Source: an uncultured Clostridia bacterium
GTDB taxonomy: Bacteria > Bacillota > Clostridia > Oscillospirales > Acutalibacteraceae
NCBI GenBank assembly: GCA_946185345.1
Contig: CAMHJC010000001.1
Span: 486-64,485, forward strand
Reading direction: 5' to 3'
DNA length: 64,000 nt
A model generated the notes under the pieces. It was not told where the DNA came from. It saw nothing but the letters and a program-made list of their open reading frames with translations, and ran no database searches. The first letter of the stretch is position 1; each line of letters starts with the position of its first letter. The position numbers were made by a program, and so were the translations under genes. This document shows, piece by piece, positions 3,992-28,530 of this stretch.

Positions 3992-6900
3992 TTATTCCTC
4001 CGACTCGGACTTTCTTCTTCTGCCAAAGAGCAGGAAGATGATCAGACCGAGGAGAAGAACGGATACGCCCACGATGGAGCCGATGAAGAGAGGCGTATTG
4101 TTATACCAGCGCGCAAAGATGTTGGTTGTGATAAGGAATCCTTCCACATTCTCAAACTTGGTGCGGCCGGATCTGTCCTTGGCGACAATCATAAGGGTCT
4201 GCTTTTCTGTGGACTGAGGAACGTTGAATTTGTACAGATCGCCGACGGTCTCGTACTTCACTTCGTTGCCGGAGGTACACCTTGTGTCATCCGCCTTATC
4301 TCCCTTGATGAGATAAATTCTGACTGTGTCAAGCGCAATGTTATCCTTGATCTCAATAGCGACGTTTCTTCCGTCGGAAGCGTAGGTCTCTCCGCTTTCG
4401 ATGTTGGTCGGAATGATGCTCGGGGGCAGTTTGTCGATGATGAAGGAAATCTCGGCATCCTTGCCTTCGTCGATGTTTTCGTTCGAGTTGCCTGCGCTGT
4501 CTTTGGAGGAGAAGAACAGGGTGTACTTGCCGTTGTCCTCAAAGAGATCGCGATGAATCGAATAGGTGTAGCTGGATCTGCCGCCCTTATCGATGACGTT
4601 CAGATCGTAATCGGCATCTTCTTCAAGTACAAAGTGCTCGTCATTCTTGACAAGTTCCAGCGAGTAATCCGTCAGCTTGCCGAAAACGCTCTCGGTGACG
4701 ACAAGATCCTTGCCCGCCTGGTTGTAGTTGTTGTTGATATCTTCGATTCCGCTGAGCTCATAGACCGAACCGAATCTGTTGACATAGAATACCTTGGAAT
4801 CGGTCTTGCTGTTGCCGGCTTTGTCCTTGGCGGTCGCAGTAATCTTGTAGATGCCGTCAACCGACTGTTCCTCGGTGAAATTGTCGTAGTTGATGTCATA
4901 CTCATATTCACCGTTGAACTTAGCGCTTCTGGAGTAGCTGACCTTCTTCTGTTTATCCATCTTGGTCAGGACGACCGAGATGTTATCTTTGTTCAGGTTG
5001 GTATCCTTCACTACCACACTGGGTCTGACATCGCCGTTGGACGGCTTGGCAGGAACGGAAATAATGACTTCCGGAGAAGTTCTGTCCACATAGAACGAAT
5101 CCTTCTCGTAATCCTTGGCCGCATTGCCCGCCAGATCGGTGAAATCAATATCGAATGTGTAGTGGGCGTCATTGGAGAATGTGACGGTGGCGGTGTGAAC
5201 ATCGCCGTTGTTTCTCCAGCCGCTTACAGAAGGAGCCGCCTTGCTGCTGCCTCTGTCGATGGCTGTAATTTCGGTCTTGATGCGATCGGTGCTGAAGTTA
5301 TGCTCCTTGATCGTGATGGTGGCGGTTACCACGGTGCTGAAATAGCTGTCTTTCTTGGTGCTGCCGCTGACATTGTAGCTGACCGAAACAACCGGAATGG
5401 TCTTGTCGACGGTGAATTCCGTCGGAACAACGCCGTTGTAGCTGACCTTGTCATTGAAGTTGCCCGCAAGATCGGTGCAATTCATCGAGAAGGTATAATC
5501 GCCGTCCTCGCTGTAAACCAGCGTCGCTGTGTGGGTAGTGCCGTCTCCGTTGCCGCCTGCCGTGACCGTCTTCCAGCCGGAAAGCTTGGGAATAAAGCCG
5601 TGGGGATTGGAAATGGAAAGCTTGACAGCATTGGGATCGAAGTTTCTCTCCTTGACGACAATGGTCGCAGTGCGGTTGGCCTTGAAGTACTTGCCGCTGT
5701 CCACGTTGTTGTTGTCATAGGATACGGTCATTTCAGGCTTGGTGATATCGATCTTGACATCGACCGACTTCTCACTCTTGTTGCCTGCGTTATCCACGGC
5801 GTAAACGGTGATTCTGACATTGTTGCTGTTGTTCTTGTTCTTGTCAACGTTGATGAAGTTGTCGTTGGTGGTCTTGAACGTCCGGGCAGCGGAAATGCTG
5901 CTCTGGGTCAGTGTTCCTTTGAATTCAAAGAGCTTGCCTTTCTGGGTTTCCTGATTGTTTTTGACGTTGTCAAGATTCTCCACCTTGTAGGTGACGGACT
6001 TCAGACCGGAATAAACATTGTCCTTGCTGGGATCGACAACGGTGACATCCACTCTCACATCGTCATTGTAGATGCCGTTGACAGGCTGCTTTCTGGGTTC
6101 CAGAGTGATGATCGGAGCAACCGATTCAAACTCCGGCAGCTGGTCATCGACGATCAATCCGTCTGTGGAGAGATAGATGAAGTTGCCCGAACGGTCTGTG
6201 ACCTTGAGATAGACCACAAAATGTCTATTGCCTTCCTTGGCCTTGATCGAGAAGTCCTCATAATCCATCCATTCGATCCTGCCCGACTTCTCCAATGCCG
6301 TAAGTTCTTCGTCGCTGTACTTCGACTCGGCTTCGCCGTTGAGTCTGGTACCGTTCTCGAAATAGTCGATGTAGTACTTGACGCTGTCAACACCGGCAGT
6401 CAGATCGGAGGCCTTTTTGGTGAAGGAGATGCTGATGGTAGACCACAGGCTGAAGAGCATCTCGGTGCTGTTTTCGATCCAGCTCTGAGGCTTGGTTCCC
6501 TCTTCGCCGGCCTGAGCGATAATGGTGCCTTCCGGATCGGTCTTGTCAACGGTGAACAGGCTGTTGTATTTCTCCACGACAGGATTCTTGGCCATATCGG
6601 TGAAATCAACGCCGAAGGTGTAATTGGCATCGCCGCTGAAGTTGATGACAGCCACATGGGTGTCTTCATCGGGTGTGGCGCCCTTAGTGGTGACCCACTT
6701 GACGCCGCCGTCGTCATTCTTGACGATCTCGTAGGTGTTTTCTACGTCGTTTTTCTTGTAATCTTTGGCTTCAACAGTGATCACGGCGGCATCCGGGTCA
6801 AAGTGGTTGCTGCGCTCCGTGATGGTGACTGTTGCGGTTCTTTCAGCGGCAAAATAGCTTCTGCCGTCGATTACCTGATAAGGTGCTTCGTTGTTGAATT

Positions 6901-9900
6901 TGACGCTGACGGTAGGATTGGTCACGTCGATGTCGAGAGCCAGCTCCGCACTGCTTATGTTGCCTGCGTTGTCCATGGCTTCCACATAAACGACGACATT
7001 GCTGGAGTTGTTGAGCTGAGAATCGACGGTGATAGTAAAGGCGTCTTCATCGCTGTCCGGCGCTCTGGTGACGGACTGTGTTGCCTCTTGGTCGTCGGGA
7101 ATTACTTTGTAGGAAATCTGCTTGATGCGGGAACTGGGCAGATTGTCAAACAAATCGCTCGCAGCAATCTTCACTTCCACATCGCCGTTGTAAATATCCT
7201 GTTTTTCGACAGGCTCCACCGTGAGGGTCGGAGCTTTGTTGTCGACGGTGAATGATTCTTCGAATGACTCTGCGGCGTTGCCTGTGTTATCGGAGAAGCT
7301 GACACCGAAGGTGTATTTTGCGTCCTTGTTAAATGTGACGGTTGCCTTGTGTGTCGCTTCATCAGGCTTTCCTGCGACTTCTGTGGTCTCCCACTCGCTG
7401 ATTTCATAGGCGCCGTCAATGACGTTGCCATTGTGATCAAGGGCTTTGGTTTTGTTCTTGATGCCCGATGTAGCGGTTTCGGGATTGAAGTGAACGGTAC
7501 GCTCGGTAATGGTAACTTCAGCGGTTCTTCCGGTGAAATATCCGTCGGAAGCATCTTCGTTCTTTCTGTCGTCGGTAAATTGGACGTCAATCACGGGAGC
7601 GGTGGTGTCTATGTCAAGACCGAACATCGCTTCCTTGGAAGTATTGCCGCAATAATCCGTTGCCAATGCGTGTACCACAACATCGGAGGAATTGTTGGAA
7701 TCGGCTGATACAACCAGATTGACTGTATATTTGCCGGGCTTCTCTGTCTGAAGATCAATGGTTTCTTTCTCCTGCGTTGTCTGGCCATCGGCGGTCACCC
7801 AGTAGGAGATCGTTTTGATGCCGGAATACGCCTGAGCGGAGTGCTGGTCAACAACATCAATAATAACATTGACATCGCCGTTATAGCTCTCCTTGCTTTC
7901 TTCCGGAGTAATTGTCACGGAAGGCGGATCGTTGTCGATAATGAAGCCCTGGTCCGGAATGATGTACCGGTAGTTGCCCACCGTGTCGGTCAGCTTCAGA
8001 TAAACGATGAAGTTTTCCTTCTCCTTGGAGCTGTCAAATTCGAGGGGTGCTTTATACTCTTTGAATGTGAGCTTGTCGAGCGCTGCTCTGGCACTCTCCT
8101 CGGTATCGGCAACGACAGGAGTATTGGTCTTGCAGTATTCGATTCTGGCGGTGGTGGTTGCGTCCTCCGCTTCCGCTGTGACGGTAATGGTGTCGTGGCT
8201 GTAAAGACCGAAGGTGACAAACGATACAATGGCATCCCATGTCTTTTCCCAAATGGATTGTTCATCCTTGGTTTTGCCCTTGACGGTCATCTTGCCTGTC
8301 GGAGCGACGGTGTCCACCGTAAAGGGAGTGACGACCGGCTCCTTGACGAGCGATACATCCGCCTTGTTGGTGTAGGAAACCTTGACGGTGTAATTGGCGT
8401 CGGCCTTGAATCTGACGGTTGCGGTATGAGTTTTGCCTTTGTTTTCCCAGCTGATCATGGAGGCTTTGTCGATTGCGACAGTCTTGCCGGCCGCATCAAG
8501 CGCCGTTATGACAATGCCGTCCTGGGCGGCCTTCTGATCAAAGGTGAATTCTTCGTCGGTATAGGTGAGAACAAGCGTTCTGCCGTCTTTGTAATAATCT
8601 ACCCCATCGACGGAGGTCACCTTGCCTTTGGTGTCAAAGGAAGCGGTCACTTCGGGTTTCTGGGAATTGATGGCCACCGCATCGGAAGCCGAAACGATCA
8701 CGTTGCCGGCTTTGTCCTCCGCAACGACTACCACTCTCAGATTGCGGGTTGTGTTGTCATCGGCGGTGACGACAAGCGATTCATCCACCAGCAGGGGATC
8801 ATCAATCTTCACTTCGCCGGTTTTGGTGGCGGATTTGATCTGATCCTTGGCGGTCTTGCTTTCATCGTAATCCTTGATGACATAGTACCTGACGGATTTG
8901 ATTCCCGAGTGAGCCTTGTTCTCTTCGGGATCCTGAACCGTCAGTCTGAAATTCACATCGGAATGGAAGAATCCGTTGGAATTGGGTTCTTGGAGCTTCT
9001 TGATGGAGACGGTAGGCTTTGTCATGTCGATAATGACGCCGCTGGTGCTGATGTAAAGGGTATTGCCTGCCTTATCCGTGATACGGGCATAAACGGTGAA
9101 CTGTTCATCCTGTGTAAAGATGAAGGAATCATCGCTGAACTTGCCCTCTTTATACAGGGTCTCGAGATCCTCACCAAGAATGGCCTCCTCGGCGTCGGTT
9201 TTGTAATACTTAATGTACTGTATTTCGGAAAGATCGTCCTTCGCGTCGGTGACCTCAGCGGTGACCGGCTTGTTAACGAAAACATCGTATTGGAATTCGC
9301 CCGCAGCGGCAATCTTTGACCAGGTGAGACCGTTGACCGAGATGCTGCCTGTCGGAGCGGTCTTGTCGATGACGAAGGTCGCTTGGCTTACCGGATCGGC
9401 GGACATGCCTGCCTTGTTTGTGTAGGTGACGGTAAAGTCGGTGTACTTGCCTTCTTCGGAAAGGGTGAATGTACCGACCTTGTCTTTCCAGGTGACAACC
9501 ACATCGTGGCTGGCATTGTTGATTTTGGCGGTAACTTTAACGGCCGAAGGATTGAAGCAGTCGTCACTGTCGGTAATCGTTACGGTTCCGGTGCGTTCGC
9601 CGTTGTAGTAATTGGCAAGACCTTCCTCGTGCTTGCCGCCTTCCACGGAAACGGCGATTTCCGGCTTCTTGCTGTTGATATGGACGGCCTGCTTGGCTGT
9701 GACGACGTTTCCGGCACGGTCAGCCGCTTCCACGTATACAACCACGTTTTCGACGTTTCCGTATTCGGCTTCTGACAGGGTGACGGAATCCTCAAACACG
9801 CTGACTTCTTCGCCGTCGTAGGTAAAGAGTGTAGTCGCCTCTGTTTTCCCGGCGCCGGTTTCTATCCAGTACTTGACATAACTCAGATCGGAAGAAATCT

Positions 9901-11554
9901 CTCTGTCAGTAACCTTGACGGAAAGCTCCGCACTGCTGTTGAAGTATCCTTTTTCACAGTCGGCGGGAGAATTGGGATCAATCACTGCCTCCGGCTTGGT
10001 CTTGTCAAAGGCGATAACGAGATTGACCGACTTACCGTCAACCTTTACTTCACGCCAGCCAAAGTAGAAAATTCTGATTTTTTTGACGGTGCAGTCAGAT
10101 GTGATGACATACGAATTGTTTGCGCCCAAAAAATTGTGGATTTTCTTTGTTTCCTTGTCGGTGGTAACCTCAAACGCCACGTAATCCTTTGCGTTGAAGG
10201 TGACCTGCTTATCCTTGGCAAAAACATACTGGTTCTTGGCGCTGTTGAATTTGATACATTCGCTGCCGTTCCACTGAATCTGGCTGAAATCCATCGCCTC
10301 GGCTTTTTCAAACTTCACAGTGACAGCCTTATCCTCTGTTATTTTGCTGAGCTTGAGGGTCAGGTTGTTGTTGGCAAAATTCTCGTCAGGAGAAAGACTG
10401 TCCAGTTTGACCGCCTCTCCGTTGACGGAAACCGAGCTGACAACATAACCCGAATCAGGGATCAGTTTGACTGTAACCTCGGAATCGTCCCCATGCTCGA
10501 TCTGATTTCTGTCAATGGACACTTTGCCGTGTTCGCCCGATTCGGCGGTGATGTAGTACAGCTTGGCAACAAATCTGACTCTGACGGAAAAGTCCTTGTC
10601 CGAAGGCATGGAGAATTCATACTCGGTCTTGTTTCTGTCGGAATTTTCATTGTCGTCTGACTTCTTAAAGAGATCCTGGCCTTCGGGATGCGCTTCGTTA
10701 TAAACGATCACTCTGGAGATGCGCTTGCCTGCCTTTGCGGCAACCTTGACTTCGACTTCAGAGCCGGCCTTGGCGGAAACGCTGCCTATAGGACAATTGG
10801 CGGAATAATCGACAATTGTACCCTTCTGGCTGTCATATCGGATAGCGGCAACGTCTGTCTTCTCAAATTCCGTCTTGACCGTGGTATCGTCCGTTACGGT
10901 CAATGTTTCCTCGTACTTGGACTCGCCAAAGGTTTTGTCCTCGCCGTTGACTCTGATGCGAACGATGCGGTAGCCTTCCTTGGCGGTGACAGTCACCTTC
11001 GCCTTGACTCCGGTTTCGGATTCAAGCACGAAATCCTTACTCTTGGCCTCGCTGCCGTCTATCGCAAATGTACCCTGATCATCATTGCCCGTGACGGTCA
11101 GTTTGACATCTTTGGTAAACTTCACATCGACCTGCGTATCGGATTCCGCCTTGAAGCTGACTTGATTATCCTCAACCTTCAGGCTTTTGTCGCCGACGGT
11201 AACGCCTGCGATTTTCCATCCGCTGTCAGGTGTGAGCTTAAGCAGAACATCGGCGTCCTTCTGTAAGTTGGAAAGATCTGCGGTTTCACCGTTGACCGTC
11301 GCGGTAACAGAGCCTTTGCCCGTCTTATTCACGGTAACCTTCACCGCTGCCGAGACTTCAGGTTCTCCGCCTTCAGCAGGCTGGATTTCCGGAGTTTCTT
11401 CGGCATTGGCTTCTTTGGCTTCCTCTGTGGCGGGAGCCAAAGGTTCGGTGTCCGGACTTGCCCAGACTGTCGAAGGCATTGAGCCGACCAGCAGCATGAG
11501 AGCAAGCGCCGCAGACAATACCCTGTGAACAGTCTTGAACTTCAGTTCCTTCAT
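3992..11554 (-). CDS. Giant (2520 aa) surface protein with many Ig-like fold repeats, N-terminal signal peptide and C-terminal membrane anchor
   Basis: ATG 11554 follows GAGGAGA (complement of 11561-11567). The track start at 11620 adds 22 aa and has no RBS. Signal peptide is MKELKFKTVHRVLSAALALMLLVGSMPSTVWA. The linker motif [VI]D-x-[TKD]-x-P recurs at least 14 times (VDKTAPTG, IDMTKPTV, IDTTAPVI, IDVTNPTV and others), separating beta-rich modules with D.AGN motifs. C-terminal TM is LFIGSIVGVSVLLLGLIIFLLF followed by RRRK. No LPXTG motif. Confidence 0.85.
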   Translation of the reverse strand: MKELKFKTVHRVLSAALALMLLVGSMPSTVWASPDTEPLAPATEEAKEANAEETPEIQPAEGGEPEVSAAVKVTVNKTGKGSVTATVNGETADLSNLQKDADVLLKLTPDSGWKIAGVTVGDKSLKVEDNQVSFKAESDTQVDVKFTKDVKLTVTGNDDQGTFAIDGSEAKSKDFVLESETGVKAKVTVTAKEGYRIVRIRVNGEDKTFGESKYEETLTVTDDTTVKTEFEKTDVAAIRYDSQKGTIVDYSANCPIGSVSAKAGSEVEVKVAAKAGKRISRVIVYNEAHPEGQDLFKKSDDNENSDRNKTEYEFSMPSDKDFSVRVRFVAKLYYITAESGEHGKVSIDRNQIEHGDDSEVTVKLIPDSGYVVSSVSVNGEAVKLDSLSPDENFANNNLTLKLSKITEDKAVTVKFEKAEAMDFSQIQWNGSECIKFNSAKNQYVFAKDKQVTFNAKDYVAFEVTTDKETKKIHNFLGANNSYVITSDCTVKKIRIFYFGWREVKVDGKSVNLVIAFDKTKPEAVIDPNSPADCEKGYFNSSAELSVKVTDREISSDLSYVKYWIETGAGKTEATTLFTYDGEEVSVFEDSVTLSEAEYGNVENVVVYVEAADRAGNVVTAKQAVHINSKKPEIAVSVEGGKHEEGLANYYNGERTGTVTITDSDDCFNPSAVKVTAKINNASHDVVVTWKDKVGTFTLSEEGKYTDFTVTYTNKAGMSADPVSQATFVIDKTAPTGSISVNGLTWSKIAAAGEFQYDVFVNKPVTAEVTDAKDDLSEIQYIKYYKTDAEEAILGEDLETLYKEGKFSDDSFIFTQDEQFTVYARITDKAGNTLYISTSGVIIDMTKPTVSIKKLQEPNSNGFFHSDVNFRLTVQDPEENKAHSGIKSVRYYVIKDYDESKTAKDQIKSATKTGEVKIDDPLLVDESLVVTADDNTTRNLRVVVVAEDKAGNVIVSASDAVAINSQKPEVTASFDTKGKVTSVDGVDYYKDGRTLVLTYTDEEFTFDQKAAQDGIVITALDAAGKTVAIDKASMISWENKGKTHTATVRFKADANYTVKVSYTNKADVSLVKEPVVTPFTVDTVAPTGKMTVKGKTKDEQSIWEKTWDAIVSFVTFGLYSHDTITVTAEAEDATTTARIEYCKTNTPVVADTEESARAALDKLTFKEYKAPLEFDSSKEKENFIVYLKLTDTVGNYRYIIPDQGFIIDNDPPSVTITPEESKESYNGDVNVIIDVVDQHSAQAYSGIKTISYWVTADGQTTQEKETIDLQTEKPGKYTVNLVVSADSNNSSDVVVHALATDYCGNTSKEAMFGLDIDTTAPVIDVQFTDDRKNEDASDGYFTGRTAEVTITERTVHFNPETATSGIKNKTKALDHNGNVIDGAYEISEWETTEVAGKPDEATHKATVTFNKDAKYTFGVSFSDNTGNAAESFEESFTVDNKAPTLTVEPVEKQDIYNGDVEVKIAASDLFDNLPSSRIKQISYKVIPDDQEATQSVTRAPDSDEDAFTITVDSQLNNSSNVVVYVEAMDNAGNISSAELALDIDVTNPTVSVKFNNEAPYQVIDGRSYFAAERTATVTITERSNHFDPDAAVITVEAKDYKKNDVENTYEIVKNDDGGVKWVTTKGATPDEDTHVAVINFSGDANYTFGVDFTDMAKNPVVEKYNSLFTVDKTDPEGTIIAQAGEEGTKPQSWIENSTEMLFSLWSTISISFTKKASDLTAGVDSVKYYIDYFENGTRLNGEAESKYSDEELTALEKSGRIEWMDYEDFSIKAKEGNRHFVVYLKVTDRSGNFIYLSTDGLIVDDQLPEFESVAPIITLEPRKQPVNGIYNDDVRVDVTVVDPSKDNVYSGLKSVTYKVENLDNVKNNQETQKGKLFEFKGTLTQSSISAARTFKTTNDNFINVDKNKNNSNNVRITVYAVDNAGNKSEKSVDVKIDITKPEMTVSYDNNNVDSGKYFKANRTATIVVKERNFDPNAVKLSISNPHGFIPKLSGWKTVTAGGNGDGTTHTATLVYSEDGDYTFSMNCTDLAGNFNDKVSYNGVVPTEFTVDKTIPVVSVSYNVSGSTKKDSYFSTVVTATITIKEHNFSTDRIKTEITAIDRGSSKAAPSVSGWRNNGDVHTATVTFSNDAHYTFDIDFTDLAGNAAKDYEKDSFYVDRTSPEVIISVPAKPSNGDVRPSVVVKDTNLNKDNISVVLTKMDKQKKVSYSRSAKFNGEYEYDINYDNFTEEQSVDGIYKITATAKDKAGNSKTDSKVFYVNRFGSVYELSGIEDINNNYNQAGKDLVVTESVFGKLTDYSLELVKNDEHFVLEEDADYDLNVIDKGGRSSYTYSIHRDLFEDNGKYTLFFSSKDSAGNSNENIDEGKDAEISFIIDKLPPSIIPTNIESGETYASDGRNVAIEIKDNIALDTVRIYLIKGDKADDTRCTSGNEVKYETVGDLYKFNVPQSTEKQTLMIVAKDRSGRTKFENVEGFLITTNIFARWYNNTPLFIGSIVGVSVLLLGLIIFLLFGRRRKSESEE

Positions 11555-11684
11555 TGTTTTTCTCCTCACTTTTAGATTTTTTTGTACCGGGTTTCCGAAA
11601 AGCCGGCATGCGCACGACAAAACCTGCGGCGGGCAACCGCAAGCCTGTCACGGCCATTCTGCCGCTTTTGGAACATGAGCCGGG

Positions 11685-12206
11685 CTATCTGCGCCACAGC
11701 CTTCGCGCAAAAGCGGCAAGCTTTTCAAAAATCAGTACTGTATACTTATCATTTCTTCCGCTGTGCAGGATCACTCCCTCGAGCGAAAGAAACAAAAGCC
11801 ATAAATCAAGAATCACGGGTGTTATCCCGCTGACATTTTTCGCAATCATCACCGCCAGGATGAAGACCGCGGATACGAGCAAAAGTCCCCATGACATGGC
11901 CCGTCGGCCGGGCATGCGGAAGGCCGCTCCGGCATGTGGATGACCGGACGCTTTCGGTTCGGTCAGACGGCGCAGTCTGACGGTGGCGGCGCAGAAAACG
12001 GTGCCGCAGATCAGTCCTGCCCAGAAGATGCCGGCCGCAATGTACAACGCGGCGGAATGTTCATTGGTTTCCACCGAAATCACCAGCGGAATCAGCAGAA
12101 TCGAACAAACCGATACAAAATAGCCTGCCGCGGCAAGGGCATAATACAGCAGATGCCGCCTTTTGAGGGAGGATTCACTCTTATTGGTTTGATTGCTCAA
12201 GCGCAA
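11685..12206 (-). CDS. Hypothetical polytopic membrane protein (about 4 TM)
   Basis: 173-aa ORF with hydrophobic segments YYALAAAGYFVSVCSILLIPLVI, LYIAAGIFWAGLICGTVFCA, WGLLLVSAVFILAVMIA and ILDLWLLFLSL. It begins 4 nt after the upstream gene ends. No family recognised. Confidence 0.55.
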   Translation of the reverse strand: MRLSNQTNKSESSLKRRHLLYYALAAAGYFVSVCSILLIPLVISVETNEHSAALYIAAGIFWAGLICGTVFCAATVRLRRLTEPKASGHPHAGAAFRMPGRRAMSWGLLLVSAVFILAVMIAKNVSGITPVILDLWLLFLSLEGVILHSGRNDKYTVLIFEKLAAFARRLWRR

Positions 12207-12210
12207 CGCC

Positions 12211-13017
12211 TCATTCTATAACTTCGTCAGTGTGTATTTCCACCATGCTTCTCACTATGCGGAAGGAAACGGCGGCAGGATTGACGGGCTGCTCGGATAC
12301 GCCTTCCAGCACGGTAGTGCCTGCGCCCCGGTCTTCCCCGGAAAGCTCCGTGAGCTCCACGGCATCCGAGCCGGTGAGCAGAGCGGTTCCCTCTTCGTGG
12401 AGAGCCTCTTTGCTTCCCGTGAGAAGGGCGGTTCCTTCATCGGAGCAGATGCCTTTGGTGCTGTTGCCCGTGAGCAACGCCGTACCTTCCTGATCGTCAT
12501 CCGGCGCACCCATCGTTTCATATTCATTAGGTTCGGGAAGCTTCTGTGTCGGGGGACGGTTGGAAATTGCGGACTTTTCTCCGTAAAGCTCGCCGGTGGT
12601 CGGCTCCTCTTCCTCCGCAGAATAACCCGCCTGTTTAAACGCCTGCGGATTCAGCGATTCGCTGGTCTTGTCGAGTCTCTTTGAAGCGTGCGCAACAGGA
12701 ACGGCGCCGGGGGCCGGTACTCCGTATGCCTGAACGGAAGGCGCGGACATATTGGACGGCATGGCGCCTGAATTGCCGACCTGCTGTGTCAGCTTGCCTC
12801 TGGCAGCATTGACGCTGCTCGGACGGTGAAGCTTGGCGCCGCTCGCCGAATTATTCTCACGCATGGCCTTGATCTCACGGGCGACTGTTTTGCCCGTAAG
12901 ATCACCGATAACGGACGGAATCTTAAGCTTGATGAATATCAGGATTGCCGCTATCAGCGCTATTCCCGACAGCAAAAAGCCTACTATCGAAATGATATTC
13001 CAGGTTTGTGCGCTCAT
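12211..13017 (-). CDS. Bitopic membrane protein with a disordered tail carrying reiterated E-G-T-A-L-L-T-G motifs
   Basis: N-terminal TM is IISIVGFLLSGIALIAAILIFI. The Pro/Ser-rich tail has 3 x EGTALLTG and 1 x AGTTVLEG (aa 177-239). It is 2 nt from the kinase gene stop. Confidence 0.7.
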   Translation of the reverse strand: MSAQTWNIISIVGFLLSGIALIAAILIFIKLKIPSVIGDLTGKTVAREIKAMRENNSASGAKLHRPSSVNAARGKLTQQVGNSGAMPSNMSAPSVQAYGVPAPGAVPVAHASKRLDKTSESLNPQAFKQAGYSAEEEEPTTGELYGEKSAISNRPPTQKLPEPNEYETMGAPDDDQEGTALLTGNSTKGICSDEGTALLTGSKEALHEEGTALLTGSDAVELTELSGEDRGAGTTVLEGVSEQPVNPAAVSFRIVRSMVEIHTDEVIE

Positions 13018-13019
13018 AA

Positions 13020-14783
13020 TCAGTTCTCCTTATTTTTAAATGCGTTGGCAATGGCTTTTCTGGCGACGGGCAGTTTCTCCTTGACCTTGTCTACTTTAGG
13101 ATTAAAGCTCTCGTCGTTGGACGTTACTTCGTCAATCTCCCTCAGATAATCCTCCACAGAATCCAGAAGATCGGTCATTTCTTTCCTGGACACGTTATCT
13201 CTGCTGAATTTATGGGCATACTGAATGATGGTCGACACCGTCAGACGGCAGGCCTCCAGATCCATTACCTCATCGTCGGCATTGTCTTTTCTGGCTTCTT
13301 CCACAATCAGGCTGATATTCTTCCACTGATTTTTAAAGGTATTCTGCGGAATATCTCCTTCTTCAAGCTGGAACTCGATCGAAGAGATGAAATCACCGGT
13401 CTGGTTAAAGAGCTTTGCCTTGTAATAAAATTCGTCGCTCTTGGAAGAATGTGATACGGCTTCGCCGAACCAATAGGTGGCGCTTTTTCTGCGGGTGATA
13501 TCGTTTTCGGAACTGTTCCCGTTCTCATCCTGGCCGTAATCATAATAACCCCAGTACAGCTTTCCGATCTCATAAGAAAGCTTGCCGTAAAAATCGGTTT
13601 TATTGAGCCAGCTGAGGCTTCCCTGTTTATTGTCGGATTGATTGGTGTCCTGATTTTCGTCATCCTTGAGGTGCAGCACATTCAGCAGCACCTTCTCCTC
13701 ATCCTGGGTGAAGGATCTGTCTGCCTTAAAGGTATCGATCAGTGTGAAATAGGCATCGCTTCTGTCGGGAATGATTTTGATGGCGTTGGTGTAGTACTCC
13801 ACCTTTTTATCGTAATCGCTTTCCTCATTGCCGAGCCGGAAATTATTGTCGTAGTCCTTGTCGTTGATATATGTCTTCATGACAAGACCGACAATGCCCA
13901 CTATCAGAAACAGCAGGCAGGCGGCAGAAGTCGCAATGAAGGCCCCCAGCTTTTTCTTTTGAATTTTTCTGTACGCTGCGCCGTTTTCATGATAATGCTG
14001 CAGCGCATAAAGCAGCTCGGCGCATGACTGGTATCTGTCATTGGGATTGAGCTGTGTACACTTTTCGATAATGGCCTCAAAGCCCGGATCGAGCTGCGGA
14101 TTCCAGTATCGGATGGGATAGATTTCATAAGGCGGTTCACACGGATTTTTACCGGTAACCAGATGATACAGCGTAACGCCGAGACAGTACACATCGGTAC
14201 GGGCATCGGTCTGGCCCTTGCCTCCGAACTGTTCCGGAGCGGCATAGCCCTTGGTGCCGAGACTCACCGTATCGGCAAGGCTGTGATCCTTGTATTCACG
14301 GGCGATACCGAAGTCGATGATCTTGATGTTGCCGTCAGGTCTGAGCATGACGTTGGACGGCTTCATATCACGGTAAATGATAGGAGGCTTGCGGGTGTGG
14401 AGATACTCGAGCGCTTCGCATATCTGCATGGCCCACTCGATAACAAGCTCCTGAGGCTGCGCACCGTTCTGCTTGAGAATGGTGTTGAGCGTTTCGCCTT
14501 CTATGTAGTCCTCGATGATGTAAATGTAATTCGGATCCTCTAAGATATCCACGATTCGCACGATGGCGGTATGATCCAGCTGCTTAATCATATTGGCCTC
14601 GGCAATGGCGCTCTGGACAACGATTTCGTTGGCCTTGTCCCTCGTCTTTTTCGGCACTATCTTGATGGCCCACTGTTTATTGAGGCGCCTGTCTCTTGCG
14701 AGAAACACCTCGGACATGCCGCCTTTGCCTATCGACGTAAGTATTTCGTACTTGTCGTCAATGACTTGTCCCACAAAGTTCAA
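13020..14783 (-). CDS. Transmembrane Hanks-type Ser/Thr protein kinase with helical (TPR-like) extracytoplasmic domain
   Basis: G-loop GKGGMSEV, WAIK lysine, catalytic loop YRDMKPSN, DFG, AAPE. One TM (FIATSAACLLFLIVGIVGLV). About 290-aa C-terminal non-PASTA domain. Confidence 0.9.
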   Translation of the reverse strand: MNFVGQVIDDKYEILTSIGKGGMSEVFLARDRRLNKQWAIKIVPKKTRDKANEIVVQSAIAEANMIKQLDHTAIVRIVDILEDPNYIYIIEDYIEGETLNTILKQNGAQPQELVIEWAMQICEALEYLHTRKPPIIYRDMKPSNVMLRPDGNIKIIDFGIAREYKDHSLADTVSLGTKGYAAPEQFGGKGQTDARTDVYCLGVTLYHLVTGKNPCEPPYEIYPIRYWNPQLDPGFEAIIEKCTQLNPNDRYQSCAELLYALQHYHENGAAYRKIQKKKLGAFIATSAACLLFLIVGIVGLVMKTYINDKDYDNNFRLGNEESDYDKKVEYYTNAIKIIPDRSDAYFTLIDTFKADRSFTQDEEKVLLNVLHLKDDENQDTNQSDNKQGSLSWLNKTDFYGKLSYEIGKLYWGYYDYGQDENGNSSENDITRRKSATYWFGEAVSHSSKSDEFYYKAKLFNQTGDFISSIEFQLEEGDIPQNTFKNQWKNISLIVEEARKDNADDEVMDLEACRLTVSTIIQYAHKFSRDNVSRKEMTDLLDSVEDYLREIDEVTSNDESFNPKVDKVKEKLPVARKAIANAFKNKEN

Positions 14784-14798
14784 TGCTCTTCAACCTCC

Positions 14799-15572
14799 TC
14801 AGACTGCCTTAATCAGCAAAGCCGTTATGTTGTCGTTTTCGTGACGGTATTTATTCAGATCAATCAGCTGCACGATATGCGACTCCATCTCCTGCTCTGA
14901 GTGATTGACAGACGGGCCGAGTGTCCTGGCAATTTCCTCCGCCGTGATCTCGTGGCGGAAGCCGTCCGAACAGAGCATATAACATTCTCCGGAATTCGCC
15001 CTGCCGTAATAGAAGGCCGGCTCGACTGTCCTTGAAGCGCCTACGCACTGAAGAAGCACATTCCGGCGGGGATCCTTTTCGGCCGCTTCGGGAGTAAGTC
15101 TGCCCTTCTGAATTTCTCTGGCGACAAGGGTCTGATCCTCGGTAAGCACTTCGGCGTTGGAATCGGTGATGCGGTAGGCTCTGGAATCGCCCACATGACC
15201 GATAATATACCTTCCGTTTTCGAGAATCAGCATGGCGGTCACGGTAGAACCCAGCTGAATGCGAAAACGCTCACCGTATTCCGAAATAATCTGATTCTGC
15301 TGCCGGATCATCCTTCCCCATGAATAGGCCACGTCTCCGATGACGTTATCGCCTGAGAGAAATGCAGGGAATTCATTTTCGAACCAGTCGCAGAAAGCTT
15401 TGATCACGGCAGCGCTCGCCACTTCGCCCTTGGACAATCCGCCCATACCGTCACAAATGACTGCGAGAAGGATATTTCCCTTGTCGGTGACGGCCTGCTT
15501 GATGCAGCAGCTATCCTGATTTGTTTTTTTCTGAATGCCTACGTCTGTACTTAACGAGAGGTTAAATTCCAT
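14799..15572 (-). CDS. PP2C-family Ser/Thr phosphatase
   Basis: Motifs TDVGIQKKTNQDS, CDGMGG, VGDSRAY, LCSDGF and DNITALLI. Confidence 0.9.
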   Translation of the reverse strand: MEFNLSLSTDVGIQKKTNQDSCCIKQAVTDKGNILLAVICDGMGGLSKGEVASAAVIKAFCDWFENEFPAFLSGDNVIGDVAYSWGRMIRQQNQIISEYGERFRIQLGSTVTAMLILENGRYIIGHVGDSRAYRITDSNAEVLTEDQTLVAREIQKGRLTPEAAEKDPRRNVLLQCVGASRTVEPAFYYGRANSGECYMLCSDGFRHEITAEEIARTLGPSVNHSEQEMESHIVQLIDLNKYRHENDNITALLIKAV

Positions 15573-15584
15573 TTAAACACCTGC

Positions 15585-16892
15585 TTATTCAACGTAAAAT
15601 GTAAATTTTTCATTTGCCAGAAGTATCTCAGAACCCGAAAAGACTTCCACTTCGGTTTCTCTTTTAATCACTCTGCCGTCAACATAGGTTTTGTTGGTGG
15701 AATTTTTATCCACCACATAGAAGTGATTTCCTCTGGTGACGATATCCGCATGGCTTCTGCTGACATAACTGTTGTCCGACACGAAATAATCGCAGTACTC
15801 TCTTTCGCTGCCTATGCGGAACACCGGTTTATCCACCGGTATTTTCTCACGGCTCTTTTCCCTGATAAGGTAAGGATAAGCCGGCGCAGGCAGTTCGTCA
15901 CACCCCAGCACCACGGTGCCTCGTCTCTCGTTGTATCCAAGAACAACCGTACCCGAAGGAGGCGCCTGGCCGGCCGCCGGATCGGGATCAATCTGATCCC
16001 GGACAGGTGTCGGAACCTGATTCCGTGTCTGAACAGGAGACGGAGCCGGAGTCTCAGCCGGAGTCTGAGCGGCGCCTTTGTCGGATACTCCGCCGGCGGT
16101 TCTGCCGCCGTTGACGCCGTTCGGTTTGACCAGCGGCTTGCCGCAGAAGGAACAGTAGCTGGATTCGATGGTGTTTTTTGTGCCGCAGTACATACAGAAA
16201 AGCGTGCGTCTTTTTTCTTCGATGATCTTTATCCTTCGCTTTTCGTCAAAGGGGTTGTATTCGATTCCCTGAGGAGTCTCACGGCTTTTCTGGTCCTTCG
16301 GTTTTTCTCTGAGCTGATCGGAAGGCGCCTGATAACTGTATTCTTCTTTTCTGCCCATCAGATACTTAATCAGACGCTGGAAATTATTGATGGAAAAAGG
16401 CGCTCCGCTGCTGAAGAAGGCGTAATAGCTGTTGAGAAAGCCCATGTTTTCTCCCGGAATGAAGCTGAAAAACCCCGGCAGCTGATGAAAGAACAAGCCC
16501 TTTTCCTCGTAATTATAATTATTCAGAACCGGCCAAAGTATACATCTGACGGTACCCTGCGGATCAAGAAAAATTCTGTCCGGATCCAGGTCAATATGAT
16601 TGCTGCTCAGTCCCAGATCCTCACATTTTTTGATGATATTGATCAGCTGATCCACTACCTTGAGGAAGTAGGTTTTGTTGACAGAGTACCCGTTATTGTG
16701 CGACACAGGATTCAGTCCCTGCACAATACACTCAAGCACGGTTGTCTTGCCGCTCTTTTTTACGATGACCGGCAAAAAGGCCCCCAGCGAAGAGCTTACA
16801 TTCAGTTCCCGTTCATATAATACTTCAGGATATGTAAATTTATTTGTTATGATGATTCTGCCTGATGTGATTTTTGTCGTTATTTTACTCAA
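15585..16892 (-). CDS. Pseudokinase-like N-domain + zinc-ribbon + Pro-rich linker + C-terminal FHA domain protein
   Basis: The N-domain has a degenerate catalytic-loop-like stretch NHIDLDPDRIFLDPQGTVRCILWP. Zn ribbon is CMYCGTKNTIESSYCSFCG. The linker carries SGTVVLG and RGTVVLG. FHA motifs are FRIGSE, SRSHA and STNKTYVDG. Confidence 0.8.
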   Translation of the reverse strand: MSKITTKITSGRIIITNKFTYPEVLYERELNVSSSLGAFLPVIVKKSGKTTVLECIVQGLNPVSHNNGYSVNKTYFLKVVDQLINIIKKCEDLGLSSNHIDLDPDRIFLDPQGTVRCILWPVLNNYNYEEKGLFFHQLPGFFSFIPGENMGFLNSYYAFFSSGAPFSINNFQRLIKYLMGRKEEYSYQAPSDQLREKPKDQKSRETPQGIEYNPFDEKRRIKIIEEKRRTLFCMYCGTKNTIESSYCSFCGKPLVKPNGVNGGRTAGGVSDKGAAQTPAETPAPSPVQTRNQVPTPVRDQIDPDPAAGQAPPSGTVVLGYNERRGTVVLGCDELPAPAYPYLIREKSREKIPVDKPVFRIGSEREYCDYFVSDNSYVSRSHADIVTRGNHFYVVDKNSTNKTYVDGRVIKRETEVEVFSGSEILLANEKFTFYVE

Positions 16893-16952: not shown

Positions 16953-17270
16953 TCAGAACCATCTTCTGGACAGTCTTTCCGCTCTGTTGATCGCATTGAT
17001 CTGCGCATTCTTATACTGAGCGGCGGCAAACCGGAGGTATTCCGCATACGCAGTCAATGACTGTACCATAGCGGCATGCACTGAACTGCTATCATCTATC
17101 GTGTGCCATTTGGCCATGAACGCATCGTAATCAGAGCCTTTCCAGCCCGAAGAAAGCTCCTCCGCCGCCTGATTGGCTCTGTTCATGCCCTGATCGAGTT
17201 TTCTGACATATTCTTCAACTGCCTTGGCGGCGCCTTCAAAACAGCTGTGATCCACATAAATACTTGCCAT
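16953..17270 (-). CDS. WXG100-like small helical protein
   Basis: SGWKGS motif at mid-length. About 105 aa, predicted helix-turn-helix hairpin. ATG at 17270 is preferred (GAGGTG upstream); the track start is 17279. Confidence 0.7.
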   Translation of the reverse strand: MASIYVDHSCFEGAAKAVEEYVRKLDQGMNRANQAAEELSSGWKGSDYDAFMAKWHTIDDSSSVHAAMVQSLTAYAEYLRFAAAQYKNAQINAINRAERLSRRWF

Positions 17271-17296
17271 TTCATTCACCTCATATATATGCTGAA

Positions 17297-17602: not shown

Positions 17603-17748
17603 GATAATACCTCCCGTCAGTATTATTATCATACTTAATAACTATATCACAATATATCTGTTTTACTGTAAAATCGTATCATTGAATAACCGCATCATGG
17701 CAGCAGGTTATTGTATGCATACCATTTTACTCCAAAACAGCGGCGGAG

Positions 17749-17988: not shown

Positions 17989-18010
17989 ATAAAACAACCT
18001 CCTCGCATCT

Positions 18011-23212: not shown

Positions 23213-23241
23213 AACAAGGTTCTCCTTTCGCAAAAATTGAA

Positions 23242-23499
23242 TTATATCAGCATGAGCCGGGAGCCGTTATGTATGCCAAGCTCCGCAACAATCATGTTAA
23301 TATTGTAAATAATGCCTGTGTCGGCGTCGCACAATACCGCATCACGCGACGCCTTGTATTCTCCTCCGGAGAGATCGCTGAGCGCGCTTGCGACAAGCTG
23401 CACAACTTCGCTCATTCTGCTCTCGAGAGGAATGAACACGTCAAATGTTTCTCCCGACGCGGGAACGGATATTTCAACCAAAGCTTTGTTACTCAGCAT
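23242..23499 (-). CDS. esaB: YukD/EsaB-like ubiquitin-fold T7SS protein
   Basis: 85 aa. The pattern ...FDVFIP....M.EV.......L......(long loop)....L.ELGI.NGS.LMLI is typical of YukD. Overlaps the essC stop by 11 nt. Confidence 0.75.
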   Translation of the reverse strand: MLSNKALVEISVPASGETFDVFIPLESRMSEVVQLVASALSDLSGGEYKASRDAVLCDADTGIIYNINMIVAELGIHNGSRLMLI

Positions 23500-26400
23500 C
23501 TTCTTCCTCCGTTTTGCTCTTCAGCAGCTTAATCTTGACGCACTTGCCCTTCTGCATGACATAGCCGAAGCCGGAGCCGATCGGTTTGCGCAGCTCAGGC
23601 GTCATGGTGGTCGGCTTCAGATAGAACTGGTCAGAGAAGCCGTTGCCTATCCATATGCCGTCCACCTGCGATACATTCTGTTTGTACCACTTCTCGTACG
23701 ACACAGCTGAAATGGCGTTGATCTGCTCGGCGATGACGATATTGATCCTGTAATCGACACTGCCTTTTTCCAAAATCAGCGACAGCCGTTCGTTGGCGTC
23801 CTGACTGAGCACGCCTTTGAGGGCGGCCAGCGAATTGATGATGACAAATACGCTTTCAAACGCCTCGGGATCCTGTCCCGCCGCCAGAGCATCCTTGTAG
23901 GTGTTGTTTCTGTAGAGCACCAGATCAAAGAGCTTTCGCACTTCGCTCTCGCAGTCCTTGGCCGAATTGCAGAGCGTCAGCGTGCCGGTGGGAACGGAAA
24001 CGGATTTGGGCGCATCAAAAACGACGCCCTTTACCACTTCGGTTGTACCCGCCAATTCCGCAAAATCGGCGATAAAATCCTGATATTCATTGCCGGAGGA
24101 ATGAACCATATTGATATAGGCCGCTCCGAAGGGGTAATAGCAGACATTGAGGGTGCTTTTTTCCATACCGACAGGAATCCGGATCCTGTCATTCGGGCGG
24201 ATATATCCCCGCAGGAATTCAACATCCACCTTCTCGGGGAGAATGGGAACCCTCTTGGCGACTTCGCCTTTCCACGAGGCGCTGACCTTGCGGCAGTCGT
24301 CACGGATAAAGGCAAAGGGTACGCTCTCGTCGGTCAGGCTGGCCGCCTGGAATTCATACAGCGCTTCCTGCCGGATAAGGCCTCTGCCCTTGATTTTGGC
24401 AGGATAAAGACCCTCGGTCTTGCCCACAACGGAGGAATAATCCGATTCGTCGTTGAGCTGCATTACCAGGAGCTGCTTGAAATTCTGAAGCATTCTGAAT
24501 TTGACACTCGTTGTGCCGAGGGCGGTGAGTACAAAATAAATGCCGTACTTGGTGCCTTCACGGGAAAGGAATGCCACGGCCTCCTCCCGGTCGCTGTATG
24601 TCTCGGTAAACGCGGAGAAATTGTTGATGGCCACCACTATGGACGGCAGAGTTTCTCCCGAAGTGCCGATATAGGAGCTGTAATCGCCGCCGTAATTGGC
24701 AAAGAGCTTTTTGCGCCGTCCGGTCTCTTCGAGCAGCATCTTGAAGAGATTGCCTACCTTCTCGGCTTCATAGGAAAGGATCACATCGCCCACATGAGGC
24801 GCATCGGCAAATGCCCTGAGCGTCTCGGATGCGAAATCGAGTATGTAAAGGTTGACTTCGTCGGGCGTGTGCTCGTGAATGAGCGAATAGATCATTGCGT
24901 TGAGGAATGTGGTCTTGCCGCTTCCCGCAACACCGTAGACCACGGCGTTGCCTTCTTCGGATATGGGAAGCCGCAGCACGCACTGCCTCTGGTTGGCCGG
25001 ATCGTCAAGCTCGCCGATGACGGGATTGAGCTTGAATCGTTCGGATACGACCGAGTATTTCTTCTTGACGTCTTCCATCATGATCACGGCAGGAATAGGC
25101 TCGAGCCAGAGCGGTCTGATCTTAATGCCTTCTTCCTCGGCGGTTTTCTTCAGATATTCAGTGATAACGTCAAGCTGCTTTTTGGCGTTGCCTCCGGCAT
25201 TCTTTCTGCCGGGCTTTACTTCTTTGATAACGTGTCCGTTGCGGTCGATGACGGCAACGCTGTTGTCTTTTTCCTTGACGACCGTTTCAGAGGGATAGTA
25301 CGGCGCTCCCGACCATGCAGACTGTCCGAGTTCAAACAGCTCGTTATAGCCGACCTGAAGATAGAAACGTCCGGTATCGGTCAGCTCGGCGGCGTCGGGA
25401 CGCTTGAGCATATCCATACTGTCGGCACGCTCCTGCACCTTGAGACACACACGGAACTTACTGTTGCTCCATATCTGATCGTCAACCACGCCGCTCGGCT
25501 TCTGGGTCGCCAGTATCAGGTGAACGCCAAGGCTTCGGCCGATACGGGCGGCACTGACCAGCTGGGTCATGAATTCCGGCTGCTGGGTTTTCAGCTCGGC
25601 GAACTCGTCGGAGATGATAAACAGATGCTGCAGCGGCTCCTCCACGGTGCCTTCCCTGTAGAGCTTCTGATACTTGTAGATATCGATGTTGCTGACGCCG
25701 ACCTTCTTGCTGGCGTCGGCAAAAATCGCCTGTCGGCGCTTCAGCTCACTCTCGATGGAAACGAGCGATCTCTTGATGGCGGCGCCGTCGAGATTGGTGA
25801 TAATGCCGGCGGTGTGCGGCAGATGTTCAAATGACTTCGCCATGCCGCCGCCCTTGTAGTCGATGAGGATAAAGGCCACCTCGTTGGGGTGATAATTGAC
25901 GGCCAGCGAAAGAATATAGGTAATGATAAACTCGGATTTACCCGAACCGGTCATACCCGCGACCAGACCGTGAGGGCCGTGGAATTTTTCGTGCAGATCA
26001 AGCTTGAAGGTCTCGCCGAGGGTATCCACACCCACAGCGGCTTCAAGAGATTTGGTGGGATCATTGTCTCTCCATCTCGCCAGGGCGTTGAGATGTTCGA
26101 CCATGCCGACTCCGAACATTTCCAGGAAGGTCAGCGTTCTGGGCAGCTTAAAGCTTGTCGCGCTGTTATCCAGCGTGATATTGGCAAGTCTCACGCTCAG
26201 GTCGAGCGGATCCTGCAGCGGCTTTATGTCAGGGAAAAATTCCGTGCTCTTGCCGGAAATGTCGTTTTTGTCAAAGAGTCTCGCTCTGTTGCCCGACAGC
26301 TCGACCACCATGGAACATTCCTTGGGCAAATCCTTCAGCTCGTCATAGATGGATATCACGCTGATGTTGAGATTTTCCTTCTTGGCGAGCACCTGTTTGA

Positions 26401-28042: not shown

Positions 28043-28530
28043 TATACCTGCTTCTCCAATCGCAACTATCAGTATGAACGACGTACAATCATACAACGCA
28101 TTATTCAGAGACATGCTTATACATTCTCAATTTTATATTTTACATCGAGTTGCCAAAAATGTCAATATCTTTATAAAAGAAAGCATAATGTCGTAATTAT
28201 CGCAAGACTTCACTTATTAGACATAATTCACTCAATAAATACTGCTCAAATTTTAATAATCAAACTAACAAATCATCTTCAGACTTTCCTTTTTCTGCGG
28301 ATTAATCAAAAAAAAGCAATCAAAATCCGGCGATATTTTTGCACAGTGTCATATATCTTCGCTGTTTCCCATAGTTGCGTTTTTACAATCGGCTAGTTAA
28401 TTCATGAAAAAGAGGTGCGGTTTACCATCATTATTCATTTTTCAGTCTTAAGTTTTCCGTCTTAAGTTGGAAAATCCTGTCTTGGAAACCGAAGAATGAA
28501 AACTTAAAACTTAAAAAAGAATAATACAAA

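Follow-up and report, generated by a model that had tools for sequence, protein, structure and literature searches.

T7SSe, a variant of the Gram-positive type VII secretion system (T7SS) with components TseA-TseK, was defined by bioinformatics only (Garrett, Higginson and Palmer, 2024, Microlife 5:uqae013; PMC11217815). That study raises the possibility that T7SSe is regulated by threonine phosphorylation, and reports that the phosphothreonine (pThr) pocket in the FHA domain of the ATPase TseC is conserved, whereas that of EssC from the T7SSb subtype is degenerate; it names no acceptor sites. Its text describes no T-x-V-L arrays, the motifs and repeats treated there being WXG, Gly-Gly, PE/PPE and the pThr pocket only, and its Fig. 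S4 prints a pair of GTTVL motifs in TseJ and marks only the GR, SxxH and NG residues. Here, we describe arrays of Thr-centred motifs in two proteins, TseK and TseJ, encoded by a T7SSe locus in a 64-kb stretch of DNA from an uncultured Clostridia bacterium (hereafter, the window). We propose, with a probability of about 0.6, that these motifs belong to a write/read/erase module in which the kinase TseD writes, the phosphatase TseF erases, and the FHA domain of TseC and/or TseJ reads pThr-x-[VI]-Leu. T7SSe and the general idea of its phosphoregulation are already published; for the specific motif arrays, we found no report in full-text literature on the motif strings, DUF6382, T7SSe, TseK and TseJ, or in that since 2024 on T7SS-FHA-phosphothreonine.

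The type VI secretion system (T6SS) pathway (PpkA/PppA/Fha1 of P. aeruginosa; TssL-pThr/Fha of A. tumefaciens) likewise combines a membrane Hanks-type kinase, a PP2C phosphatase and an FHA protein in a secretion locus. A phosphorylated membrane component recruits the FHA protein, which leads to active secretion (summarised in PMC11217815). By contrast with T7SSe, however, the T6SS is an unrelated machine from another lineage, and it uses a single pThr site rather than an array. TseJ scored 22.4 bits on the TagH/VI_FHA model (TIGR03354), for which the cut-off is 120, and we class it as an analogue of the T6SS Fha pathway rather than a member of the TagH/VI_FHA family. In the Esr-Esx threat-sensing system of Actinomycetales, an Esx-linked kinase/phosphatase pair controls Thr phosphorylation in the disordered region of EsrG1, and the T152A substitution in EsrG1 abolishes signalling (bioRxiv 2026, PMC13622651). 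This system shares with the window locus a T7SS-linked kinase/phosphatase pair and an FHA output protein organised as a domain, a disordered region and an FHA domain; it differs in phylum, in its MoxR, vWA, transglutaminase and beta-propeller filament genes, and in having no TseK-like array protein. A third point of comparison is the ABC transporter Rv1747 of M. tuberculosis, in which two FHA domains are joined by a phospho-acceptor linker, and whose FHA domains are the nearest solved sequence match to that of TseC. Heinkel and colleagues reportedly found in 2019 that multisite pThr-FHA contacts in the disordered Rv1747 linker drive higher-order clustering of the membrane protein. In Rv1747, however, the readers and two sites are in one polypeptide, whereas here a dedicated scaffold carries up to 18 near-identical sites.

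GarA (Mycobacterium), OdhI (Corynebacterium) and DgcB (Bdellovibrio) resemble TseJ in having a Thr motif with hydrophobic residues at +2/+3, in disordered sequence tens of residues N-terminal to their own FHA domain. The DgcB FHA domain binds its own N-terminal tail, LEK-pT-SIV, and the authors note that the +2/+3 hydrophobic residues are common to the ETTSVF motif of GarA/OdhI (PMC6733907). TseJ differs from these proteins in that it has two tandem Gly-flanked G-T-T-V-L-G motifs instead of a motif with a hydrophobic residue at -3 and Glu at -2; it also has a large N-terminal DUF6382 domain, a Zn ribbon and a secretion-system setting.

The TseK tail carries a threonine motif array

The genes of the locus, between ~3.9 and 28.1 kb of the window, are all on the minus strand, as are all window genes and motifs whose positions are given below. 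Their order is TseC, TseB, a WXG100 pair, lipase-like pairs, a WXG100-like pair, TseJ, TseF, TseD, TseK, a 173-amino-acid (aa) open reading frame (ORF) and TseI. Because this gene set and order match those of T7SSe (PMC11217815), we assigned the locus to that system. The likeness extends to a TseK with a single transmembrane (TM) segment and an unstructured cytoplasmic stretch, a giant Ig-like TseI, the TseC FHA pThr pocket, the TseD kinase, the TseF PPM phosphatase, and a cytoplasmic TseJ with DUF6382 and FHA domains. The presumed writer, encoded by tseD (13020..14783), is a membrane Hanks-type Ser/Thr kinase with a TM segment (Pfam Pkinase, 6.5e-55); the presumed eraser, encoded by tseF (14799..15572), is a PP2C/PPM phosphatase (PF13672, PP2C_2, 5.2e-11).

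tseK (12211..13017) is the ORF directly after the kinase gene, and encodes a 268-aa bitopic protein. An initial annotation, made from the DNA sequence alone, had noted three copies of EGTALLTG and one of AGTTVLEG in this protein (12301-12489, minus strand), and all four are present: EGTALLTG at aa 177-184 (12466..12489), 194-201 (12415..12438) and 209-216 (12370..12393), and AGTTVLEG, the terminal "GTTVL" copy, at aa 232-239 (12301..12324). In the family alignment, L237 of the terminal copy is invariant, and T234, T235 and V236 are at least 90% conserved. We found a fifth T-x-x-L beyond the copies noted initially, T157-Q-K-L160 (12538..12549), which is the first of the array; T157 aligns with a family-invariant Thr, and L160 is at least 90% conserved. 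The window TseK has four T-x-[VIL]-L motifs where 0.33 are expected (P(>=4) = 2.5e-4; 20,000 composition-preserving shuffles), and TseK and TseJ are the only plausible ORFs in the 64-kb window with clusters of such motifs. Two ORFs antisense to this region, 12193-12684 and 12230-12493, were rejected as real genes. Over 24 nucleotides (nt), the DNA of the EGTALLTG copies differs at synonymous sites only, six of them between copies 1 and 2, while the encoded peptides are identical; Tandem Repeats Finder detected no DNA tandem repeat at these copies. This combination indicates that EGTALLTG is under purifying selection, and is not a recent duplication.

In an AlphaFold2 (AF2) model of TseK, structure is confined to a TM helix (aa 3-30) and a juxtamembrane helix (aa 43-58). 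For the repeat tail, the predicted local distance difference test (pLDDT) score is below 50, and the model contains no hidden beta-repeat fold, which would have favoured a structural explanation of the repeats. Lys and Arg follow the TM helix; the positive-inside rule, together with the DeepTMHMM result reported in PMC11217815, places the tail in the cytoplasm. Three other segments of TseK are strongly conserved: the juxtamembrane helix (IPAVIGDLTGKTVAREIKAMRE; consensus IPxVIGDLTGKTVAREIKAMRE; ~12838-12921); an AHASKRLD box (12670-12693), with H110, K113, R114 and L115 invariant; and the C-terminal peptide (VSFRIVRSMVEIHTDEVIE; consensus PVAFKVxRSxxxIHTDEVI; 12214..12273; pLDDT 62-76), with F252, H262 and E265 invariant. 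These segments may provide docking for the kinase, the phosphatase or the ATPase.

The motif is conserved and specific for threonine

We identified 328 word-indexed homologues of TseK, and a profile search gave 2110 clusters at 50% identity with E<=1e-3, and 1020 with E<=1e-10. Neither Pfam nor NCBIfam has a model for TseK, and none of the sources searched names a function for the family. The layout of the family is constant, consisting of the TM helix, juxtamembrane helix, AHASKRLD box, an array of variable length, a near-invariant GTTVL, and the C-terminal peptide. The array unit is T-[E/T/D/A]-[V/I]-L, usually with Ser after it and Ala or Gly before it, at a spacing of 7-9 residues. The window TseK is atypical in having fewer copies, a spacing of 15-23 residues, and Ala-Leu replacing Glu-Val. 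There is a mean of 6.7 T-x-[VIL]-L motifs per TseK homologue, as compared to 0.45 in shuffled sequences. Among 144 diverse representatives (50% identity), the median was six (range 0-15) and 141 had at least two; TseK proteins from the genome loci described below have up to 18. The Gly-Thr core proposed in the initial annotation held only in part: Gly at -1 typifies only TseJ and the final copy in TseK, whereas the core in TseK is T-[EDTA]-[VI]-L.

These data bear on the possibility that the motifs are chance low complexity or a functionless recent tandem duplication. The window TseK, with only four copies of which three are identical, might be read in this way, but the shuffle P value of 2.5e-4, the synonymous differences between copies with no DNA tandem repeat, and the conservation across >1000 clusters at 50% identity and two bacterial classes argue against it. 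We consider this explanation excluded by the comparative data and leave it a negligible probability, in agreement with the initial judgement that the repeats are not chance low complexity.

Position 0 of the TseK motif is almost exclusively Thr. For x-x-[VI]-L in TseK, we counted 784 Thr and 3 Ser, with no hydrophobic alternatives; in the diverse set, the counts were 822 and 15. Ser is nearly as frequent as Thr in TseK tails overall. With no pattern imposed, Leu is found at +3 of 50% of all Thr in the tails, as compared to a background of 9%. FHA domains are pThr-specific. Many FHA domains select for Leu, Ile or Val at pT+3. The FHA preference for pT-x-x-(L/I) cited initially is matched both by these TseK tails, in which half of the Thr residues have Leu at +3, and by TseJ, in which the corresponding Leu residues are 94% (L318) and 97% (L329) conserved. 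A search of a database of 5.8 billion proteins with a synthetic 99-aa array of motif variants gave two weak matches only, and is uninformative on arrays outside T7SSe.

TseJ carries paired motifs directly before its FHA domain

tseJ (15585..16892) encodes a 435-aa protein with a DUF6382 domain (aa 1-180), a Zn ribbon (aa 232-254), a disordered linker, and an FHA domain (aa 340-435; 15588..15875; FHA 7.7e-14) that is a presumed reader. DUF6382 scored 16.3 bits in the window TseJ, below the cut-off; full-length homologues at 31-47% identity carry PF19909 (DUF6382). As first annotated, SGTVVLG and RGTVVLG lie back to back before the FHA domain (15903-15956), and in every copy noted initially, in TseJ as in TseK, Leu is at +3 of the Thr. 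Motif 1, SGTVVLG, spans aa 313-319 (15936..15956; conservation of T315, V317, L318 and G319 is 94%, 86%, 94% and 87%, respectively), and motif 2, RGTVVLG, spans aa 324-330 (15903..15923; G325, T326, V328, L329 and G330 are 90%, 97%, 95%, 97% and 93% conserved, respectively). The two motifs are ~15 and 26 residues before the FHA domain, with T326 ~15 residues before the first FHA strand. Exactly two motifs with the consensus G-T-[TV]-V-L-G, ~10 residues apart and directly before the FHA domain, are found in 100 of 120 TseJ homologues. In the family alignment, Ser never substitutes for T315 or T326. Conservation of the motifs equals that of the FHA core, whereas the rest of the linker is unconserved and consists mostly of gaps in the alignment. 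A hydrophobic residue at -3 and Glu at -2 are not conserved in TseJ; -2/-1 is Gly/Gly or Ser/Glu.

In an AF2 model of TseJ built from a 63-sequence alignment, aa 1-180 and 340-435 have pLDDT values >90, and the linker with both motifs has values of 39-53. Another motif noted initially, GKTTVLE near the N-terminus, is present at aa 48-54 but is incidental. Its KTTVL (aa 49-53; 16734..16748) belongs to a beta-strand that is modelled with confidence in the N-terminal domain, and homologues do not conserve it; we rejected it as a functional site on both grounds. In the FHA domain, S378, R379, H381, S398, T399 and N400 are kept in ~100% of sequences; among FHA domains of solved structure, that of Bdellovibrio DgcB is the closest in sequence.

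Motif arrays accompany the kinase across species

By a pattern scan over 185,579 species genomes, we obtained 276 TseJ relatives, of which the best 80 loci were used; counts given here are over 83 loci. These are from Bacilli (Neobacillus, Bacillus, Oceanobacillus, Lysinibacillus and Ornithinibacillus) and Clostridia (Lachnospiraceae, Oscillospiraceae, Ruminococcus and Acutalibacteraceae). The order J-F-D-K-(H)-I is conserved in the 83 loci, and tseF is kept in 76. TseK is found in 70 loci, all of which have the kinase; in 67 of the 70, tseK starts <=60 nt from the tseD stop codon, and the two genes frequently overlap by 4 nt. The check proposed initially, that orthologous loci should conserve the Thr and the Leu at +3, was very strongly borne out. 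We also compared the presence of the TseJ linker motif with that of a downstream kinase. Both were found in 63 loci, the kinase only in five, the motif only in four and neither in three (Fisher P = 0.023, not phylogenetically corrected).

Among 4461 six-frame ORFs from the 83 loci, those with at least three motifs per 80 aa were 61 TseK, 10 TseJ, one kinase, and seven unassigned ORFs. Three of the seven (L056:20367-21263, L024:11357-12214 and L004:9890-10543) encode proteins with an N-terminal Zn ribbon and 3-8 tandem PNATTVLSD-type ("PNA-TTVL-SD") repeat units. A C-terminal TM segment is visible in two of these proteins, those of L056 and L004; in L024, an assembly gap interrupts the ORF ahead of that point. 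The TseJ linkers of L024 and L056 each contain five zinc ribbons and lack T-x-V-L, and the motif-bearing segment seems to have moved from TseJ to a separate tail-anchored protein. The kinase with motifs (L079:13297-16362; 1021 aa) has four tandem "EGAES-TQVL-E" repeats as an insertion in its kinase domain, after the P+1 loop region (SRGYASPEHYG) and ahead of the next conserved segment of the kinase (DVYSLGATLY). The L079 locus is without a separate TseK; two D-T-V-V-M-G motifs, in which Met occupies +3, are found in its TseJ. Motif arrays have been gained independently on these unrelated scaffolds, and the recurrence of one array in loci of the same kind is what would be expected of a ligand for a common reader or writer.

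Two of the loci, L008 and L022, are on the same Neobacillus contig ~17 kb apart, such that a second TseJ paralogue is encoded downstream of a complete T7SSe locus. This paralogue carries GTTVLG once and has no kinase gene next to it; several FHA proteins may be served by one kinase in this case. We compared other T7SS subtypes using the three sequences printed in Fig. S4 of PMC11217815. The J proteins of T7SSf (TsfJ) and T7SSj (TsjJ) have a single T-E-L-L or T-Q-L-I directly before the FHA domain.

The kinase and the candidate readers

The catalytic residues of TseD (K41, R138, D139 and DFG) are 100% conserved among 71 sequences. In the same sequences, its activation loop, D-T172-V-S-L175-G-T177 (aa 172-175 at 14259-14270), has invariant T172 and T177, with L175 94% conserved. 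A likely autophosphorylation site of the kinase thus shares the T-x-x-L context of the repeat motifs. This bears on whether the motifs serve as kinase substrates without an FHA reader, acting instead as a charge or conformation switch, a threshold-setting phosphate sink or a kinase-docking array, with the FHA domains binding other targets, such as T172-x-x-L175 of the TseD activation loop. The motif may then merely mirror the substrate preference of TseD, of which the invariant T-x-x-L in its loop would be an indication; the L079 kinase carries repeats within its own kinase domain, and a site spacing of 7-9 residues is crowded for FHA domains. Bacterial Hanks-type kinases, however, usually take Ser as well as Thr, and hence a preference for Thr of 784:3 suggests that the reader is specific for pThr. 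Moreover, the TseJ motifs keep a constant, short spacing to the FHA domain of the same protein, an arrangement shared with GarA, OdhI and DgcB, and a hydrophobic residue at +3 is a classical determinant of FHA selectivity (PMC5549992, PMC6733907). We therefore regard substrates without an FHA reader as unlikely.

The other presumed reader is TseC, an FtsK/SpoIIIE-type T7SS ATPase of 1541 aa with an N-terminal FHA domain (tseC, 23489..28114; PF01580 1e-55). The longest tseC ORF begins 24 codons upstream of a Met (MIVTTITKSY...; 28043-28114), and TseC residue numbers follow this longest ORF. The FHA domain (aa 136-195; 27530..27709; PF00498 1e-17) has a canonical pThr pocket (G138, R139, S153, H156, S173, N175 and G176), with GR, SxxH and NG 96-100% conserved in 27 TseC sequences, and its best solved relatives are the Rv1747 FHA domains. 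The initial annotation had counted three FHA domains in the locus, but Pfam detects two, of which one is in the 1541-aa ATPase; a second, degenerate N-terminal FHA domain in TseC, as in EssC, is possible.

The properties of these domains also bear on a different explanation, in which T-x-V-L is a short, beta-strand-forming peptide that binds a partner by phospho-independent strand addition, and the kinase and phosphatase act elsewhere. The proposed partners would be the ubiquitin fold of TseB, by analogy with SUMO-interacting motifs, whose hydrophobic core is flanked by acidic residues or Ser, the pseudokinase-like DUF6382, or an FHA domain in a non-phospho mode. A V-L core with E/D/S flanks resembles hydrophobic-core strand motifs, and there are precedents for FHA binding of this kind: the FHA domains of T7SSb EssC/YukB bind YukC and YukD without phosphorylation (PMC12637312, PMC11217815), and the unphosphorylated DgcB tail is also able to occupy its FHA cleft. 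The TseJ FHA domain, in addition, is without the "GR" Arg. On the other hand, a plain strand motif needs no Thr at position 0, where Thr is almost always found (784 Thr, 3 Ser, no hydrophobic residues); an active kinase and a phosphatase are closely coupled to the motif; and the TseC pThr pocket is conserved, unlike in T7SSb. We consider phospho-independent strand addition distinctly improbable.

A proposed write/read/erase module

The motifs, their conservation and Thr specificity, the disorder, the gene linkage and the pocket residues were computed here. Together, the preference for Thr over Ser, the disorder, the independent gain, the kinase linkage, the TseC pocket and the hydrophobic residues at +2/+3 fit a pThr/FHA linear motif. 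The T-x-[VI]-L motifs are short linear motifs in intrinsically disordered cytoplasmic segments, and, going by sequence, their Thr residues are the most likely sites at which the kinase switches on the secretion machine.

From these data we infer the phosphorylating enzyme, the binding partner and the consequence for secretion. We propose that TseD, which has an extracytoplasmic C-terminal domain, would phosphorylate the motif Thr residues upon an envelope or extracellular cue, and that the TseF PP2C would strip the phosphates from them. Each pThr-x-[VI]-Leu would be a ligand for the canonical TseC FHA domain or for the TseJ FHA domain. TseK would serve as a multivalent scaffold anchored in the membrane, offering 4-5 sites in the window protein and 2-18 in its relatives. 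In its phosphorylated form, it would gather FHA-bearing components at the membrane and thereby license assembly or activation of the secretion ATPase, with the dense array giving avidity and a threshold response. By analogy with GarA, OdhI and DgcB, the GT[TV]VLG pair of TseJ is probably a self-ligand of its own FHA domain, acting in cis (autoinhibitory) or in trans (oligomerising).

Several observations weigh against this module. We infer both phosphorylation and FHA binding of the motifs from sequence, and the sequence counts are not phylogenetically independent. The "GR" Arg is missing from the TseJ FHA domain, the position being Ser in the window and Lys (60%), Thr (20%) or Ser (13%) in the family. 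In the AF2 model of TseJ, the FHA domain has no unphosphorylated motif docked on it; since the linker is just disordered in the model, this counts neither for nor against docking. TseK sites 7-9 residues apart may be too close for simultaneous FHA occupation. The linkage to the kinase has exceptions in both directions: five loci have the kinase and a TseJ without a strict T-x-[VIL]-L, two of them with T-V-V-M or T-A-V-V, and four loci have the TseJ motif and no kinase within 6 kb. Lastly, TsfJ has its single T-E-L-L although T7SSf is reported to be kinase-free; the motif may predate the linkage to TseD, or a kinase encoded elsewhere may serve it. Overall, the phospho-switch proposed in the initial annotation is partly supported: the sequences, the disorder and the gene linkage fit it, whereas the N-terminal KTTVL, the Gly core, the number of FHA domains and the missing TseJ Arg do not.

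If the module operates as proposed, the arrays point to likely phospho-targets, namely at least 4-5 Thr residues in TseK, two in TseJ, and possibly T172 of TseD. What is unusual is that up to 18 tandem sites are carried by a dedicated scaffold protein. TseK would be an unusually clean bacterial case of a dedicated membrane-anchored, intrinsically disordered multisite phospho-scaffold, a design that is familiar in eukaryotic signalling and rare in bacteria. T7SSe is widespread in gut Clostridia and soil Bacilli, where such machines deliver antibacterial toxins, and two TslA-like lipases are encoded in the window. An understanding of the switch would help to explain when commensals fire their T7SS.

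TseJ and TseK as a possible split EssB

The T7SSb pair EssB/YukC-EssC/YukB resembles the window locus in combining an FHA-bearing ATPase with a partner of pseudokinase fold. T7SSb differs in the degenerate FHA pocket and phospho-independent contact, and in that EssB is membrane-anchored whereas TseJ is soluble with an FHA domain of its own. The AF2 model of DUF6382 (TseJ aa 1-180; 16353-16892; pLDDT >90) matches the N-terminal domain of TraF from the pIP501 type IV secretion system (8cba; Foldseek E = 3.3e-7 over 205 columns). This TraF domain has been described as a structural homologue of EssB/YukC with a pseudokinase fold (PMC13037476). The link between DUF6382 and EssB comes from this one Foldseek match, to TraF; a profile search of the PDB with the TseJ alignment gave FHA and Zn-ribbon relatives only (ArnA, DgcB and EmbR), and no link between DUF6382 and EssB at the sequence level.

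Given a TraF-like DUF6382, and given that EssB/YukC binds the FHA domains of the ATPase in T7SSb, TseJ and TseK could together correspond to EssB/YukC, a core protein of T7SSb, split in two and gated by phosphorylation. We hold this extension of the write/read/erase module to be possible, if doubtful. TseJ would provide an EssB-like pseudokinase fold that engages the ATPase, and TseK would provide the membrane anchor; the two would join only once TseD had turned the TseK array into pThr docks for the TseJ and TseC FHA domains, and the GTTVLG pair of TseJ would autoinhibit its own FHA domain or drive oligomerisation. If true, T7SS assembly would be licensed post-translationally by a multisite "phospho-barcode", a design that is undescribed for any T7SS.

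Other genes of the locus

tseB (23242..23499; PF08817) encodes a YukD-like ubiquitin-fold protein. Two WXG100 proteins, TseA and TseA2 (22907-23233 and 22576-22884; PF06013), are encoded beside tseB/tseC, and two further WXG100-like proteins are encoded at 17297-17632 and 16953-17279. A 105-aa ORF (17749-18066) has no family match. At the other end of the locus, tseI (3992..11620) encodes a 2542-aa surface protein with Ig-like repeats (Big_13, Big_3 and related domains) and a C-terminal TM segment, with a homologue in 57 loci. Between tseI and tseK is a 173-aa ORF for a membrane protein (11685..12206), which occupies the place of tseH. The protein shows poor sequence conservation, and phmmer against the other loci gave no homologues beyond one locus; a 160-aa ORF is found at the same place in L001-L003. 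The 173-aa ORF is a candidate TseH by position.

The lipase-like pairs consist of two paralogous proteins of ~500 aa (18011-19519 and 20262-21773; 29% identity, E = 3e-35), each followed by a putative lipoprotein (19524-20243 and 21787-22446), with small WXG100-like proteins encoded nearby. In both ~500-aa proteins, a Mbeg1-like/lipase domain at the N-terminus is combined with a conserved helical region at the C-terminus, an order of domains described as "reverse" for the S. aureus T7SS lipase toxin TslA (PMC10730906) and present here in a T7SSe locus.

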